A DNA stretch of 52,939 nucleotides. It comes from Anaerolineae bacterium. GTDB taxonomy: Bacteria > Chloroflexota > Anaerolineae > B4-G1. Positions 6,272 to 44,974 of this stretch are shown one piece after another. The translations under genes were made by a program, and so were the position numbers. Under the pieces are notes generated by a model. That model saw only the letters and a list, made by a program, of their open reading frames with translations. It was not told the origin of the DNA and did not search any database. Numbering within the stretch: the first letter of the stretch is position 1; each line of letters begins with the position of its first letter. The stretch spans positions 1-52,939 of the forward strand of contig DAOTUC010000155.1 of the NCBI GenBank assembly GCA_034437315.1, in the 5' to 3' direction.

Positions 6272-6341
6272 TTCTTATTCCCTGTCTCTTATTCCCTGTC
6301 TCTTATTCCGCGCCTCTTATCCCCTGCCTCTTACTCCGCCG
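6272..6341. repeat. 14-bp tandem repeat x5 (CTCTTATTCCCTGT consensus on the + strand)
   Basis: Units at 6272, 6286, 6300, 6314 and 6328. The array spans the stop codon of the FtsK-like gene and the gap before the membrane-protein gene. Every unit carries TAA plus AGAG(G/A) on the coding (minus) strand. Confidence 0.85.
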
Positions 6342-7480
6342 GTTTGGGGTCTAGCACGATAGGCGTTTGAGACTTCTGACAGCGAACCTGCGGGAGGTTG
6401 CGCTTCGACCGTCCACGGTTGGCCGACAATGCGCTGCACGACGCCTTGAATTTCCTCGGGCGAGACGTGGGCCGCCTGGAAGCGGATCAATCGCCCCTCG
6501 GCCACAGCCAGGAAATCCCCCCGGCCCATCAAGCGCTCCGCGCCCGTCCCGCTCCACCCGGCGGCGGTGCGCGCGTCCGACGCGCTGCTGACCCGTCCCA
6601 CCAGCCGCACCGGGAAATTCGCCTTGATTAACGGCCCCAGGACAGACGTGGTCGGTTTCTGCGTCGCCGCCACGATGTGGATGCCGACCTCGCGCCCGCG
6701 CTGCGTCAACCGGGTCAGCGCGCGCTCGACCTCCTTGCCGCCGACCATCAACAGGTCGGCCAACTCGTCGATGAAGACAGCGACGTGCGGCGACGCCGGC
6801 GATTGTCCATTGACGCTGCTCCGTCGCTCCATCAACCGCACCAGGCTGCGCAAGACCTCCGTTGTCTCTTCGATCTGCCAGATGACGGGGCGCGCCAGGT
6901 GAGGCAAGCCCTCGAAAAGTCGGAATGCGCGCCGCTTGGGGTCGATCAACACCAACGAGATCCCGGCGGCGGAAGCAGTGGAGAGAAAAGGGCGATACGG
7001 CTCGTTCCCCATCGCCAGGCTGAGGATCATCGATTGCATCAATATCGTCTTGCCGGAACCGGTAGCGCCGGCGACCAGGATGTGCGCCACGTCTGGCGAG
7101 GGCAGCCGGATCAGCAAGGGCGCGCCGTCCTCCGAGAGGCCCAGGAGCGCTGTCGCGGGCGGAAAGGGGGGGGTATCACCCGGTTGATCGACCAATTGGC
7201 GGAATAGCGGCAACAGGCGCACCGGTTGCGGGTCGTTGCGCGGCACTTCAATGGCGATCGCCGACCCCCGCCGAGACACACGGCAGTCCGGCGCGTCCAG
7301 CGCGGCCGCCAGCTCCTCATTCAAACGCTTGATCTTGGAGATCTTGGCCCCGATGGCGGGCAGCACCTTGAAGCGAATCCAGCGGGGCGTCACTGTCCCG
7401 CCGGAGACTCGCGCCGGCACCTTGTGCACGTTGAGCACCGCTTCGATTCTGTCGGCCTGAAAATTTAGCATATCGCGCAT
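6317..7480 (-). CDS. Soluble FtsK/SpoIIIE-family DNA-translocase-like ATPase (387 aa, no TM domain, no gamma domain)
   Basis: FtsK alpha-like N-terminus (VTPRWIRFKVLPAIGAKISKIKRLNEELAAAL), Walker A LVAGATGSGKT, Walker B VAVFIDELADL, and IHIVAATQKPTTSV...RLVGRVSSASDAR. RBS AGAGG. Confidence 0.85.
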   Translation of the reverse strand: MRDMLNFQADRIEAVLNVHKVPARVSGGTVTPRWIRFKVLPAIGAKISKIKRLNEELAAALDAPDCRVSRRGSAIAIEVPRNDPQPVRLLPLFRQLVDQPGDTPPFPPATALLGLSEDGAPLLIRLPSPDVAHILVAGATGSGKTILMQSMILSLAMGNEPYRPFLSTASAAGISLVLIDPKRRAFRLFEGLPHLARPVIWQIEETTEVLRSLVRLMERRSSVNGQSPASPHVAVFIDELADLLMVGGKEVERALTRLTQRGREVGIHIVAATQKPTTSVLGPLIKANFPVRLVGRVSSASDARTAAGWSGTGAERLMGRGDFLAVAEGRLIRFQAAHVSPEEIQGVVQRIVGQPWTVEAQPPAGSLSEVSNAYRARPQTGGVRGRG

Positions 7481-7512
7481 CTTTTTACCTCTTTAGAGAG
7501 TTGTCCAACGAC

Positions 7513-7587
7513 AATTATAATTGCCCTGACCACCGTCCCGGGGGCGCTAATTGGCCCCGAGGACGGGCCCCTGAGCGAATAGTCTCT
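7513..7587 (+). repeat. ~85-bp palindromic intergenic repeat, copy 1 (divergent, lacks the T-rich segment)
   Basis: AATTATAATTGCCCTGACCACCGTCCCGGGGGCGCTAATTGGCCCCGAGGACGGGCCCCTGAGCGAATAGTCTCT aligns with the copies at 17889, 27774 (inverted) and 43426. Confidence 0.85.
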
Positions 7588-7682
7588 TTCTCTCTCTTTC
7601 TCTTTTTCTTTACGGGATTTTCGGATTCTTCCGTCTCGCCCCCAAACGGACAATAGTCCGCCGCCAGGCGCGCATCAGGATG

Positions 7683-7730
7683 GAACGTTTGTTCTGATTC
7701 TATCCTAACAGAACATTTGTGCTATGTCAA
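7683..7730 (-). promoter_or_regulatory. SOS-type promoter with two LexA boxes, driving the FtsK-like operon
   Basis: Minus strand: TTGACA (7725-7730), 17-nt spacer, TAGGAT (7702-7707). GAACATTTGTGC (7711-7722, one mismatch) lies in the spacer. A perfect GAAC-N4-GTTC (GAACGTTTGTTC, 7683-7694) lies just downstream of the -10. Confidence 0.7.
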
Positions 7731-16969: not shown

Positions 16970-17869
16970 CTATGCTGTTAAAATTTCTGCACCACCATTA
17001 TCATCATCGGAGACGCTGTCCGTGACGCGCACGGTATGTTCCCATTGGGCCGAGAGACTGCCATCGACAGTGACGACGGTCCAATTGTCATCCAATACGC
17101 GCACATGTTGCCCACCGGCGTTGATCATCGGCTCAATGGTAAACACCATGTTGGGCATGAGCGTCAACCCGGTGTGAGGTTCTCCAAAATGGCGCACGTC
17201 GGGAGGCTCGTGAAATTGCAGGCCGACGCCGTGCCCGATGTACTCTCGCACGACTGAGTAACCGTGGCCTTCGGCGTGCCGTTGAATCACGTGCCCGATG
17301 TCGCCCAGGGTGTTGCCCGGCTTGACCTGTGCAATCGCCAGGTGTAGACATTCTTGGGTGACCTGGACCAGCTGGCGGGCCTGTTCGGAGATTTCGCCGA
17401 TCATAAACATGCGGCTGGCGTCTCCGTAATATCCATCTAGAATAGACGTGACGTCGACGTTGAGAATGTCGCCCTCGCGCAACACGGTATCATCGGGTAT
17501 GCCGTGACACACGACATGGTTGATGGAGGTGCAGACGCTTTTAGGGAACCCACGGTAATTCAACGGGGCGGGGATGGCGCCGCGAGCGACGGTGTACTCA
17601 TGCACGCAGTGGTTGATGTCGTCGGTCGTGACGCCGGGCTCAATGCGCGCTTCCAGCATATCCAGGATGTCCTTCGTCAACTGCCCGCTCCGCCGGATCC
17701 CGGCAATCTGTTCTTCCGTTTTGATGATGACGCGGGAGGGGCGCCGCGTCTTGCCAATAATCGCTCGGTTGCTGCGGCCGGTTGCTCTATCTTGCTTCCG
17801 GTGGCAGTTTTTATATTTCTTACCACTGCCGCACCAGCAAGGGTCATTTCGTGATAGTTTGTGCATCAT
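16970..17869 (-). CDS. map: Type I methionine aminopeptidase with N-terminal SEC-C zinc-binding motif
   Basis: SEC-C motif DPCWCGSGKKYKNCH. MetAP motifs VCHGIP, DVTSILDGYYGD, GHGVG and FTIEPM. Confidence 0.95.
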   Translation of the reverse strand: MMHKLSRNDPCWCGSGKKYKNCHRKQDRATGRSNRAIIGKTRRPSRVIIKTEEQIAGIRRSGQLTKDILDMLEARIEPGVTTDDINHCVHEYTVARGAIPAPLNYRGFPKSVCTSINHVVCHGIPDDTVLREGDILNVDVTSILDGYYGDASRMFMIGEISEQARQLVQVTQECLHLAIAQVKPGNTLGDIGHVIQRHAEGHGYSVVREYIGHGVGLQFHEPPDVRHFGEPHTGLTLMPNMVFTIEPMINAGGQHVRVLDDNWTVVTVDGSLSAQWEHTVRVTDSVSDDDNGGAEILTA

Positions 17870-17888
17870 ATACCTTTCGGTTTTATGT

Positions 17889-17978
17889 AGAGCGTCTTAA
17901 ATAATTGCTCTAGCCACCGTCACGCGGGCGCTAATCGGCCCGAGGACGGGTCTCTGAGCGAATTTTTTAATAGTCTCT
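17889..17978 (+). repeat. ~85-bp palindromic intergenic repeat, copy 2
   Basis: AGAGCGTCTTAAATAATTGCTCTAGCCACCGTCACGCGGGCGCTAATCGGCCCGAGGACGGGTCTCTGAGCGAATTTTTTAATAGTCTCT. Confidence 0.9.
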
Positions 17979-18060
17979 GTACCTGGTTTGATGAGGATGC
18001 CAAGCCATATTATACCACTATTCACGAGGGAAGTTAAAACAATCAATGGAGGATTTTTAA

Positions 18061-27718: not shown

Positions 27719-27762
27719 TTGACAAACCCCTCTCTATTTAGTATAATGTAATGACATTATAC
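27719..27762 (+). promoter_or_regulatory. Consensus sigma-70 promoter overlapped by a perfect palindromic operator
   Basis: TTGACA (27719-27724), 17 nt, TATAAT (27742-27747). GTATAATGT-AATG-ACATTATAC (27741-27762) is a perfect 9-bp inverted repeat covering the -10. Confidence 0.65.
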
Positions 27763-27773
27763 TAAACCCCTTC

Positions 27774-27858
27774 AGAGACTATCAAAAATTCGCTCAGAGG
27801 CCAGTCCTCGGGCCGCTTAACGCCTCCGGGATGGCGGCTAGAGCAATTATTTAAGACT
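27774..27858 (-). repeat. ~85-bp palindromic intergenic repeat, copy 3 (inverted)
   Basis: The reverse complement reads AGTCTTAAATAATTGCTCTAGCCGCCATCCCGGAGGCGTTAAGCGGCCCGAGGACTGGCCTCTGAGCGAATTTTTGATAGTCTCT. Confidence 0.9.
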
Positions 27859-27884
27859 TCACCTGATGAAAGTCGAGTGTCAGC

Positions 27885-29375
27885 GTGTCATCCATCAATC
27901 GCGACTCACCCGTTCCAATATATCACCAACTTAAGGCGATCATCCAGGCGCAGATCGAAAGCGGCGTCTGGCGCCCTGGCGATCGCATTCCCACCGAGCA
28001 GGAGCTGTGCCAGCGATATAACATCAGCCGTTCGCCGGTGCGGCAAGCTCTGCAAGAATTAGCATTTGAAGGCTTGCTGCTCCGCCGACCCGGCCTGGGC
28101 ACCTTCGTCGAGGGTGGTGCGACCGCGGAGCTGGCGACCGGTACACTGATCCACACAATGAACTCTGACCCAAACTGGTCGCAGGTGCTGGGCCACGCAT
28201 CTGAAGCCTGGAACGTGACTCATCCGGATCAAAAAATCAAATTCGAGCTCGAATCGGTCAACCACAACGATCTGTACAACTTGTTGAGCACCGCCGTCGG
28301 GAGTGGAACCGCCCCCGACGTGGCGATGGTGGATGGCGTTTGGGTCGCTGGCCTGGCCCAATCCGGCTTTCTGTATGCGCTCCAGAATCAGATGACCGGC
28401 GCGCAATGGAATCACAGCCAGTTTGCCCAGGACCTATACCCGGCCTTCGTCGAGGCGAACTCGTACGCTGGTAAATTGTATGGACTGCCGGCCAAGTCGG
28501 ATGCGTCGTTGCTCTGGTATCGCAAGGATTGGTTTGAGCGAGAAGGGCTCGCGCCGCCGAGTGACTGGCAAGAATTGCTTGACGTCGCCCGGCATTTTCT
28601 TCAACCGGCGGTCCAGGCGCGCTATGATGGGGCGCATCCGCTGATCTTTCCTGGCGGGTTAGCCGCCGGTGAGGCGACCGTTTACAACTTGATGCCCTTC
28701 GTCTGGTCGGCCAGCGGGGAGATTTTCGATGCTGACGGGAACGTGGTGTTGGACGCTCCCGCCACGCGGCGCGCGCTGCAGTTCCTGCGGGACTTGGTCG
28801 CCCTGCATCACGTCAGTCCGCCCGACGTGACAGGTTACGACGAGTATACCAGCCCTCACCTTTTCGCCCGGGGGAAGGCGGCCATGGCCCTCGGCGGCAG
28901 TTACGAGAGCAACCTCATTCTGGAAGTGAGCGGCTGGGGACATGAGACGTTTTCCCGGCGCGTCGGTTACGTCGCGCCGCCCCACGCGCCGGGCAGTCGT
29001 TCTATCTCGACGGTAGGGGGGACGAGTTACGTCGTGCTGCGCCAATGTCCCAGCCCGGCGTTGGTGATGGATGTCTTGCAGGCGGTCACCGATCCGGAAA
29101 TTGTTGGGGATATGTATCGTCAAACCTTACGCAATCTCCCCAGCCCCTCTTTTGACGCCCTGCTCAATCCAGAAACGGACCGATTGCTGATGCAGACGTC
29201 TCGGATGATCGCGTCCGGTCGCGCTCGTCCATCCATCCCTGACTACGTGAAAATTTCACGTCAATTACAAAGTATGTTCGAGACTGTTCTTTCTACTGAC
29301 GTTCCCATCGACGAGTGCTTGCAGCGCACAGCCGAATTCATCGGCGTCATCAGCGAACGACCCTATCAAATCTAA
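27885..29375 (+). CDS. GntR-family wHTH fused to a MalE-like (type 2) solute-binding-protein domain; probable sugar-responsive regulator
   Basis: N-terminus PIYHQLKAIIQAQIESGVWRPGDRIPTEQELCQRYNISRSPVRQALQELAFEGLLLRRPGLGTFV is a GntR HTH. The rest resembles sugar ABC binding proteins (LWYRKDWFEREGLAPPSDWQELLDVARHF, GKAAMALGGSY). No signal peptide. Confidence 0.8.
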   Translation: MSSINRDSPVPIYHQLKAIIQAQIESGVWRPGDRIPTEQELCQRYNISRSPVRQALQELAFEGLLLRRPGLGTFVEGGATAELATGTLIHTMNSDPNWSQVLGHASEAWNVTHPDQKIKFELESVNHNDLYNLLSTAVGSGTAPDVAMVDGVWVAGLAQSGFLYALQNQMTGAQWNHSQFAQDLYPAFVEANSYAGKLYGLPAKSDASLLWYRKDWFEREGLAPPSDWQELLDVARHFLQPAVQARYDGAHPLIFPGGLAAGEATVYNLMPFVWSASGEIFDADGNVVLDAPATRRALQFLRDLVALHHVSPPDVTGYDEYTSPHLFARGKAAMALGGSYESNLILEVSGWGHETFSRRVGYVAPPHAPGSRSISTVGGTSYVVLRQCPSPALVMDVLQAVTDPEIVGDMYRQTLRNLPSPSFDALLNPETDRLLMQTSRMIASGRARPSIPDYVKISRQLQSMFETVLSTDVPIDECLQRTAEFIGVISERPYQI

Positions 29376-43378: not shown

Positions 43379-43425
43379 AAATCATCTAGAATCCTTGCAC
43401 AGCGAGCAAGAATTTGGTGGCCAAG

Positions 43426-43513
43426 AGAGTCTTAAATAATCGCTCTAGCCACCGTCCCGGGGGCGCTAATCGGCCCGATGACGGGCCTCTGAGCGAATTT
43501 TTTAATAGTCTCT
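43426..43513 (+). repeat. ~85-bp palindromic intergenic repeat, copy 4
   Basis: AGAGTCTTAAATAATCGCTCTAGCCACCGTCCCGGGGGCGCTAATCGGCCCGATGACGGGCCTCTGAGCGAATTTTTTAATAGTCTCT. Confidence 0.9.
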
Positions 43514-43558
43514 CAACAGCTCTTTTTAGCTCTGGCTCGTCCAGGTTAGGAGATCATT

Positions 43559-44974
43559 ATGCAAAAACAAAAGTACGATGTCGCGATCATCGGCGGCGGG
43601 CCGGGCGGGTATGTCGCAGCCGTCCGCGCAGCGCAATTGGACCTCGACGTCGCCCTGGTCGAAAAAGAGAATCTGGGCGGCGTGTGCCTTAACTGGGGCT
43701 GTATCCCCACCAAGGCGCTCCTGCGCAACGCCGAGGTCATCTTGTTGTTGGGCCAGGGCCAGCAATACGGTTTCAAGCTGAATGGTTTCGAGGCCGATTA
43801 TGGCGCAGCGGTTGACCGCAGTCGAAAGGTATCCGAACGATTGGTCAAGGGGGTCGATTTGCTGATGCGCCGGAATGGGGTTGACGTCTTCGAGGGCGTG
43901 GGCGCGCTCACATCGCCTCGCACCGTCGAGGTGACGTTGAATGAGGGCGGCGCGCGCACGTTGGAGACGGAACACGTCATCGTCGCCTCTGGCGGGCAGG
44001 CGCGCGCCATCCCCGGCGTCGAGGTGGACGGCGAGCGGGTGATGACCTACCGTCAGGCCATCATCCTGCGCGATCTACCGGCCTCGGCCGTCATCGTCGG
44101 GGCGGGCCCCATCGGTATGGAATTTGCTCACGTCTGGCGCGCCTATGGCGCCGAGATCACCGTGGTGGAGATGATGGAGCGCGTCCTGCCGCTGGAGGAC
44201 GAAGAGGTCAGCGCCGAGGTGGAGCGCGCCTTCAAGCGCAACCGGGTCAACGTGCTCACCGATACCCGCGTCCAGAAAGTGGCGATCACCAAAAGAGGCG
44301 TTCGGGTGCGAGTCAGCGCGAATGGAGATGAGAACGGCGAGGAGCAGATGCTAGAGGCGGAACGCGCCCTCATCGCCATCGGTGTGCGCCCTAATAGCGC
44401 GAACATCGGCCTGGAGGAGATCGGCGTTGAGTTTGAACGCGGCTACATCGTCGTCGATGAGTCCATGCGAACCAGCGTGGAAAACGTCTACGCCATCGGC
44501 GACGTGACCGGCAAGATGCCGCTGGCCCACGTGGCCTCCGCTCAAGGGATCGTCGCGGCCGAGACCATCGCTGGGACGGAAACGATTACCTTGAATTACG
44601 AGATGATGCCCCGTTGCACCTACTGCCATCCCCAGGTCGCCAGTTTTGGCCTCACCGAGGCCCAGGCGAGCGAGCGAGGATACGAGGTCGCCGCCGGGAC
44701 GTTCCCCTTCCGCGCCAACGGCAAGGCGCTGGGGTTGGGCCAGGGCTATTACGACGGTTTCGTCAAGATCGTGGCCGACGCAGCCAGCGGCGAGATCCTC
44801 GGCGGACACCTGGTCGGCCCGGAGGTGACTGAATTGCTGCCGGAGTTGGTCTTGGCTCGTGACTGGGAACTGACGCCGGCCGAAGTCGCCCGCACTGTCC
44901 ACGCGCACCCCACGTTGAGCGAGGCCCTGATGGAGGCGGCCCACGAGGTCTTCGGGAAGGCGCTGCACATTTGA
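43559..44974 (+). CDS. lpdA: Dihydrolipoyl dehydrogenase
   Basis: YDVAIIGGGPGGYVAA, redox-active GGVCLNWGCIPTK, and HAHPTLSE. Confidence 0.95.
   Translation: MQKQKYDVAIIGGGPGGYVAAVRAAQLDLDVALVEKENLGGVCLNWGCIPTKALLRNAEVILLLGQGQQYGFKLNGFEADYGAAVDRSRKVSERLVKGVDLLMRRNGVDVFEGVGALTSPRTVEVTLNEGGARTLETEHVIVASGGQARAIPGVEVDGERVMTYRQAIILRDLPASAVIVGAGPIGMEFAHVWRAYGAEITVVEMMERVLPLEDEEVSAEVERAFKRNRVNVLTDTRVQKVAITKRGVRVRVSANGDENGEEQMLEAERALIAIGVRPNSANIGLEEIGVEFERGYIVVDESMRTSVENVYAIGDVTGKMPLAHVASAQGIVAAETIAGTETITLNYEMMPRCTYCHPQVASFGLTEAQASERGYEVAAGTFPFRANGKALGLGQGYYDGFVKIVADAASGEILGGHLVGPEVTELLPELVLARDWELTPAEVARTVHAHPTLSEALMEAAHEVFGKALHI

Follow-up and report, generated by a model that had tools for sequence, protein, structure and literature searches.

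Four copies of a palindromic element in the window

The window, the whole stretch of 52,939 nucleotides that was analysed, is contig C155 of a 4.09-Mb draft MAG of an Anaerolineae bacterium (386 contigs, 60% G+C, 92.6% complete, 5.2% contaminated). It carries four copies of a short palindromic element, each close to the start codon of a gene (Table 1). The genes had been named from their translations in a preliminary description of this DNA, and Pfam matches support all four identities: an FtsK-like gene, the M24 methionine-aminopeptidase gene map, a GntR-SBP regulator gene and a dihydrolipoamide-dehydrogenase-like gene. The four copies align over their full length, as described there, with a mean column identity of 79%.

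The distance to the start codon is 15 nt for copy 1 (ATG of the FtsK-like gene), 20 nt for copy 2 (ATG of map) and 27 nt for copy 3 (GTG of the regulator gene). Consensus scans find promoter-like sites upstream of all three, which bears out the earlier proposal that these copies occupy predicted 5′ UTRs. The −10 region of the map site is conserved in two related genomes, G001 and G002. Copy 4 lies 46 nt upstream of the dihydrolipoamide-dehydrogenase-like gene.

The target-site duplications served to refine the limits of the copies (Table 1). Copies 2 and 4 are intact. Copy 1 is degenerate and contains a TATAAT, both as reported before; the TATAAT scores as promoter-like in the consensus scan. 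The copy is about 10 nt longer in the left arm and has lost the T-run through an 8-nt deletion. Its left boundary, placed by a GAGAGT and a 3/4 flank match, probably lies further out than in the earlier extent of 7513-7587. The TATAAT is on the + strand and directed away from the FtsK-like gene, with no + strand gene downstream.

Table 1 Features of the window: element copies, neighbouring genes, promoter-like sites and repeat B (TSD, target-site duplication)
Feature	Positions	Strand	Remarks
FtsK-like gene	6317-7480	-	downstream of copy 1
TATAAT of copy 1	7492-7521	+	promoter-like
MITE copy 1	7496-7586 (probable full extent)	+	degenerate; nhmmer match 7517-7589; flanks TTTA/TTTC
Promoter-like site upstream of copy 1	7702-7730	-	TTGACA-17-TAGGAT
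map	16970-17869	-	downstream of copy 2
MITE copy 2	17890-17977	+	88 bp, intact; TSD TGTA/TGTA at 17886-17889 and 17978-17981
Promoter-like site upstream of copy 2 and map	18009-18037	-	TTAACT-17-TG-n-TATAAT (extended −10)
Promoter-like site upstream of copy 3	27719-27747	+	consensus TTGACA-17-TATAAT
MITE copy 3	27775-27857	-	~83 bp; outer 4-5 nt of left terminus missing; TSD TTCA/TTCA (+ strand reading) at 27771-27774 and 27858-27861, junctions read by eye
GntR-SBP regulator gene	27885-29375		downstream of copy 3
Repeat B	43383-43552 (parts 43383-43424, 43517-43552)	+	MITE-like, ~83 bp; GGGCCTAACC...CCAGGTTAGG; split by copy 4; empty-site reference
MITE copy 4	43425-43512	+	88 bp, intact; TSD CCAA (43421-43424) / TCAA (43513-43516)
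Dihydrolipoamide-dehydrogenase-like gene	43559-44974		downstream of copy 4

The element belongs to a high-copy family

A BLASTN search followed by an nhmmer profile built from 67 full-length copies, the copy-number check suggested in the preliminary description, identifies 129 non-overlapping loci genome-wide, 93 of which cover both termini. A 17-nt terminus pattern, GAGASTMTTAAAWAATT, occurs 115 times in the genome with at most one mismatch, against 0 occurrences of the reversed control. For 22% of the loci a contig end lies no more than 400 nt away, compared with 7.6% of the genome. This enrichment indicates that the repeat breaks the assembly, which explains fragmentation of the MAG and makes 129 a lower bound; the true number is probably higher. 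Carriers are few among the 48 species of the family and the 145 species of the order, and only this genome holds more than about seven termini.

The element is 88 bp long (consensus GAGAGTCTTAAATAATTGCTCTAGCCACCGTCCCGGGGGCGCTAATCGGCCCGAGGACGGGCCTCTGAGCGAATTTTTTAATAGTCTC), with size variants of 66-91 bp and no coding capacity, and forms one long imperfect palindrome. Its terminal inverted repeats of about 18-24 bp are imperfect (GAGAGTCTTAAATAATTG... and GAGACTATTAAAAAATTCG...) and agree at 14 of their first 17 positions. RNA folding bears out the palindromic structure: the whole element forms a single hairpin on either strand, at −36.3 and −36.5 kcal/mol (z = −3.4 and −4.2). Individual copies are on average 91.6% identical to the consensus (range 81-99%). 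Consensus positions 45-78, in the right half, are clearly less variable among copies than positions 1-44 in the left half, and the common variants A27G and C42T suggest subfamilies.

Insertions are flanked by 4-bp duplications and differ between genomes

A 4-bp direct repeat flanks the element, perfect in 34 of 85 copies and matching at three of four positions in 17 more. The duplication differs from copy to copy (e.g., TACA, TTTA, TGTA, TAAA, TATA, TAGA, TGAA, TTAA). When the 51 sites with at least a 3/4 match are reconstructed as empty, the target consensus is T-N-N-A, with T in 86% at position 1 and A in 82% at position 4; immediately outside the duplication C or G is preferred, and the surroundings are A+T-rich. 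Repetition of the flanking 5-8 nt was found in no copy; at lengths other than 4 this test is out of register, and it hence gives weak evidence for the exact length.

Comparison with relatives reveals filled and empty sites in both directions, the insertion polymorphism that had been proposed as a check. In G001:C133 and G002:C1, the map promoter region orthologous to that around copy 2 has the conserved −10 and the gene start and lacks the element. Conversely, a site on G001:C574 is filled (CTTA...CTTA), and contig C210 of this genome has CTTA once (...gcCTTAcgtttt...). A site on G008:C392 is likewise filled and the corresponding site on C38 of this genome is empty. The G008 contig is binned in another genus, yet it is 94-96% identical to this genome (C38:18697-20480), a similarity that suggests mis-binning or recent transfer. 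Copy 4 interrupts a second repeat, repeat B, of which more than 40 copies in G001 are uninterrupted and read ...GGTGGCCAATGGCTCC....

One insertion is common to this genome and its sister species G001. The copy on C157 occupies the same site as a copy on G001:C89, with the duplication TTTA, and the two are identical at 79 of 88 positions, compared with 92-93% for their flanks. This divergence is consistent with neutral decay since before the split of the two species. Two inverted MITE copies 2.7 kb apart on the same contig (G001:C89; L015, 3500-10500) were considered as a composite transposon and rejected, since the contig is a perfect inverted self-duplication, an assembly artefact that doubles one MITE locus.

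Eight copies are exactly 70 bp long, each at a site and with a duplication of its own, and the six that were aligned share an identical 20-nt internal deletion. The deletion variant must therefore itself have spread.

Copies cluster near gene boundaries in either orientation

Gene positions were taken from a crude codon-usage caller (3,304 genes, 87% coding), as were start codons; a GGAGG-type Shine-Dalgarno sequence is clear at nearly all adjacent starts. All but two of the 129 loci (127) are intergenic. Start codons are faced by 60 left and 64 right ends, stop codons by 47 left and 48 right ends, and tandem gene pairs contain 30 forward and 35 reverse copies. The shared orientation toward start codons that had drawn attention in the window (3/3) thus proves to be a small-sample effect.

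The position of the copies is biased. Forty-one of 93 start-facing flanks (44%) measure 12-47 nt and none measures 0-11 nt, whereas the 12-47 nt zone would receive 15% of insertions distributed uniformly over intergenic DNA and 17% of insertions restricted to TNNA sites (binomial p ~1e-10). The TNNA motif alone is therefore insufficient to explain the excess. Nearly all copies near start codons stand immediately 5′ of a clear Shine-Dalgarno sequence. At the other gene boundary, many of the 95 gene-facing ends that face stop codons are only 0-15 nt away, and duplications such as TAAA, TGAA and TAGA could include the stop codon itself. About 15 copies fill intercistronic gaps of less than 50 nt. 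The insertion-site preference raised in the preliminary description is thus real, in that copies cluster just upstream of Shine-Dalgarno sequences or directly past stop codons. Of the bias relative to genes that it had looked to, the positional part holds genome-wide and the orientational part does not. We infer that the clustering reflects tolerance combined with an A+T-rich target preference, with selection as its cause, although the excess near start codons could reflect function rather than tolerance.

Possible functions of the hairpin

A functional reading of this excess, the one feature that could point beyond a selfish element, would be that a cis-acting RNA hairpin common to dozens of genes has arisen by co-option of the copies, or of those immediately 5′ of ribosome-binding sites. 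In either orientation, it would tune mRNA stability, processing (e.g., by RNase III) or translation. The concentration of start-facing flanks in the 12-47 nt zone relative to the null, the position of nearly all of those copies just 5′ of a Shine-Dalgarno sequence, and the strong fold on both strands (−36 kcal/mol) point in this direction. Transcription is to be expected from the promoters predicted upstream of copies 1-3, Correia and ERIC elements provide a precedent (PMC10969869), and orientation independence is no objection for a palindromic hairpin.

The pattern of substitutions, however, argues against selection on the fold. Across 69 full-length copies, double changes keep a pair in 10 cases and break it in 11, the same as in controls with partners slid by 1-3 columns; substitution counts are indistinguishable from these controls, so that the covariation analysis proposed earlier finds no compensatory signal. 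Single changes break 190 pairs and keep 96, and paired and unpaired positions are equally variable (8.2% and 9.0%). The sole shared orthologous copy has diverged at least as far as its flanks, and the element is missing in the sister species from essential genes, for example map. The flanking genes are functionally unrelated, and many copies lie past stop codons or distant from genes. On this evidence we consider co-option as a shared hairpin unlikely, and the shared cis-regulatory module offered as one option in the preliminary description finds no support in covariation, in variability, in the orthologous loci of the sister species or in the functions of the flanking genes. In Rfam, the sole match in the window at the gathering threshold is a tRNA, and a permissive scan of copy 4 returns noise (E ~3). 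The earlier statement that no described family matches the element is consistent with the absence of a match both there and in the literature.

A more elaborate version, to which we likewise give only a small chance, concerns the ~40 copies 12-47 nt upstream of starts. It combines domestication of this subset as an orientation-independent 5′-UTR hairpin with an evolved ‘safe-harbour’ target preference of an IS1182-like transposase. If it were true, the hairpin would set mRNA stability or translation for dispersed genes, and the safe-harbour target would be the TSS-to-Shine-Dalgarno region and stop codons, rather than these positions being the outcome of post-insertion selection.

It is highly improbable that the element is primarily an intrinsic, possibly bidirectional terminator, or a carrier of outward promoters, that has spread genome-wide. 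Read from the sequence, one strand has a GC-rich stem with an A-rich run before it and GAATTTTTT after it, and the 95 ends that face stop codons, many within 0-15 nt, would suit a terminator; in the predicted fold, however, the T-run pairs with the A-rich arm, and the consensus scan detects no terminator on either strand of any of the window's four copies. A strong terminator would not be tolerated in the 5′ UTR of map, an essential gene, where a copy lies, or ahead of the many other genes that copies of either orientation precede. As for promoters, the TATAAT of copy 1 is promoter-like, but the intact copies 2-4 contain no such site; a minus-strand site at 27785-27756 reaches no further than the edge of copy 3.

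IS1182-like transposases as candidate partners

The combination of terminal inverted repeats, variable duplications and mobility makes this very probably a new MITE family, that is, a non-autonomous DNA transposon with a 4-bp T-N-N-A duplication whose most likely partner is an IS1182-like DDE transposase. The search for a transposase-bearing parent, called for in the preliminary description, recovered relatives with similar termini and no complete element with identical ones. No IS1182-like transposase gene was detected in this MAG by tblastn with 20 queries or in a class-level search, and neither 145 genomes of the order nor 185,579 species representatives yielded a full-length element with exactly these termini. 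When the left terminus followed by a non-MITE base was sought in the 185,579 species genomes, the matches were at about chance level apart from a 150-bp MITE in G012.

That MITE (G012:C106; L053, 5289-5438) combines both termini of the 88-bp element with an unrelated interior and is flanked by the duplication TATT. The occurrence of the same ends around a different interior shows that the termini, and not the interior, are mobilised. The same genome also provides a transposase. Contig G012:C31 encodes a 289-aa, N-terminally truncated transposase ORF with PF13751 (DDE_Tnp_1_6) and IS1182 as its best NCBIfam match, and 230 nt past the ORF lies a terminus, ...CATTATTTAAGAGTCTC directly followed by TTGA (GAGACTCTTAAATAATG, then TTGA), that has a TNNA flank and shares 15 of 17 positions with the end of the MITE. 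Homologues of this protein (44-72% identity, 459-476 aa, DUF772 + DDE_Tnp_1_6) are encoded on three independent metagenome contigs, where the termini GAGTGTCTTAAATAATG, GAGACTCTTAAATAATG and GAGACTCTTGAAAAAAT, followed by TTTA, TCTA and TATA, respectively, stand 200-450 nt past the stop codon. A metagenome scan queried with the G012 transposase fragment returned no match. These closest transposase-bearing relatives are 5′-truncated or cut by contig ends, so the comparison concerns right termini only; for L115, the putative left end is weak.

More distant relatives (31-43% identity) occur in eight other Anaerolineae genomes and include four intact elements of 2.1-2.2 kb. The four share inverted repeats of the form GAGTGTATCGGAAAA(T/A)TCG and are flanked by the perfect 4-bp duplications AAAA, TTCA, TTAA and TTAA, similar to the MITE in both termini and target. 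In an internally deleted copy of 1,074 bp (G161:C35), the repeat GAGACTATCGGAAAATTCG matches the right end of the MITE, GAGACTATTAAAAAATTCG, at 16 of 19 positions by our own count. Every query has NF033551 (IS1182) as its best match, with E values from 1e-32 to 1e-58 and 112-199 bits, compared with a curated cut-off of 270. The alignments cover most of the model for full-length proteins and part of it for P0003 and the fragment. PF13751 was found in the G012 fragment by a domain scan, and PF05598 together with PF13751 is recorded for P0005 and P0011. From these profile matches, the Anaerolineae transposases are best described as IS1182-like, not above the curated IS1182 cut-off.

ISPse1 of Paracoccus, an IS1182-family element of 1653 bp with 16-bp inverted repeats, makes 4-bp direct repeats, as a captured copy illustrates (PMC3281130), and palindromes are the reported targets of some IS1182 members (PMC5678879). 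An autonomous partner of the MITE would be expected to have GAGAGTCTTAAATAATTG and CGAATTTTTTAATAGTCTC as its ends and a TNNA duplication.

Several other candidates were rejected. IS4/IS5/IS701 transposases (PF01609, PF13546) in this MAG, G001, G002, G008, G012 and G043 have no MITE-like termini; the only such matches in this MAG are on C133 (a fragment) and on C84 (an IS701-like gene, 445-aa DDE_5), both with unrelated ends, and PF13340 (IS427/IS1031-type) is absent. An IS630-like transposase (344 aa, HTH + DDE_3) beside a MITE arm on G043:C304 was considered as a parent and is part of an independent IS. That IS is bounded by TACCAAAAACGG... and has entered the loop at the centre of a MITE copy, with a TA as its target (L055, G043:C304 1-257). 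An intact copy of this IS630-like element makes up the entire contig G012:C307 (L098). Solitary termini in G100-G103, G133 and G012:C32 have no transposase nearby and are truncated copies or chance matches. A 2.48-kb IS on G043:C486 (L061, 200-2681) has different termini (GAGAGTTCTGCATAAAA) and no TNNA duplication. It has 17-bp perfect inverted repeats and encodes a 783-aa protein with a repeat-rich N-terminal region (TPR-like by eye) and DDE_Tnp_1; its record is partly masked.

The preliminary description had grouped MITE- and REP-type selfish elements together. The inverted repeats, the TNNA duplication, the number of copies, the polymorphism, the deletion subfamily and the IS1182-like termini bear out the former, and the duplications and the lack of a Y1/RAYT gene speak against the latter. 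Single-strand transposition by Y1 enzymes makes no target-site duplications. Propagation as a REP/REPIN-type repeat by a RAYT (an IS200/IS605-like Y1 transposase) can thus be practically dismissed, despite the short palindromic form, the intergenic location, the high copy number and the lack of a cognate DDE transposase in the same MAG, since variable 4-bp duplications flank most intact copies, the termini match IS1182-like DDE elements, and PF01797 (Y1_Tnp) has no match in this genome and scores in control genomes.

Proposed mechanism and comparison with known elements

For a MITE family mobilised in trans by an IS1182-like transposase, as we infer, the terminal inverted repeats (18-24 bp) would serve as binding and cleavage sites of a DDE enzyme. 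A 4-bp staggered cut at T-N-N-A (extended preference TWWA with S on either side), followed by repair, would leave the 4-bp direct repeats. The likely source of the enzyme would be an IS1182-like IS with a DUF772 + DDE_Tnp_1_6 transposase, of the clade found in Anaerolineae. Insertions would then accumulate where they are tolerated in a gene-dense genome, namely between the TSS and the Shine-Dalgarno sequence, directly past stops and in short intercistronic gaps. Given such locations, many copies are probably co-transcribed as a strong hairpin within 5′ UTRs, 3′ UTRs and operon mRNAs, and any effects on expression would be a by-product and not the reason for the family's existence.

The Correia elements of Neisseria and the ERIC elements of enterobacteria resemble this element in being small, non-coding and palindromic, with terminal inverted repeats. 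MITEs of this type also share its abundance (tens to hundreds of copies) and its location, almost all copies being intergenic and often immediately upstream of genes. Prokaryotic MITEs are often co-transcribed, and nested insertions have been reported for BOX, RUP and SPRITE (PMC10969869). The present element differs from Correia and ERIC in its unrelated sequence, its host (Chloroflexota, class Anaerolineae) and its 4-bp T-N-N-A duplication. The putative partners have in common with the IS1182 family (NF033551) the DUF772 and DDE_Tnp_1_6 domains and 4-bp duplications, and their termini start with GAG and resemble those of the MITE. Unlike that family, the MITE has no transposase, the Anaerolineae transposases score below the curated cut-off, and no autonomous copy with identical termini was recovered. 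REP and REPIN sequences are also short intergenic palindromes of high copy number; in contrast to them, this element has target-site duplications and termini homologous to those of a DDE IS, in a genome without a Y1 transposase gene. Our literature search found no report on MITEs in Anaerolineae or Chloroflexi, or on TNNA duplications.

Within an uncultured Anaerolineae lineage, these results document one MITE family of high copy number together with at least three others, and tie the former to an IS1182-like clade that duplicates 4 bp, apparently at T-N-N-A-type targets. For annotators, the 5′-UTR hairpins would be read as transposon scars and not as riboswitch-like leaders. The insertion polymorphisms are natural markers for strain tracking, and the clustering near ribosome-binding sites and stops offers a clean data set on target choice versus selection in MITE landscapes.

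Other repeats

The copies of repeat B in the sister species G001, more than 40 in number (loci L033-L037), often form head-to-tail arrays. In the window, the 3′ end of this repeat provides the AGGAG ribosome-binding site of the dihydrolipoamide-dehydrogenase-like gene. A 53-nt stretch at G043:C304 1-53 is 100% identical across genera to C354:124-176 of this genome (G000), with more copies in C355 and G008:C45, and is probably another small mobile repeat. Two more families occur in G000: repeat C, of ~165 bp (GGGTCTTCAGGATTTCGCATGG...), and repeat D, of ~95 bp (GGTGTGTTTCAAATGC...), with loci at C138:17955-18113, C376:8172-8340, C383, C45 and C31, and at C309:28522-28613. Both have inserted repeatedly into TAAATAATTG of the MITE inverted repeat, with duplications of ~8-10 bp; TAAATAATTG is an insertion hot spot within the transposon end.
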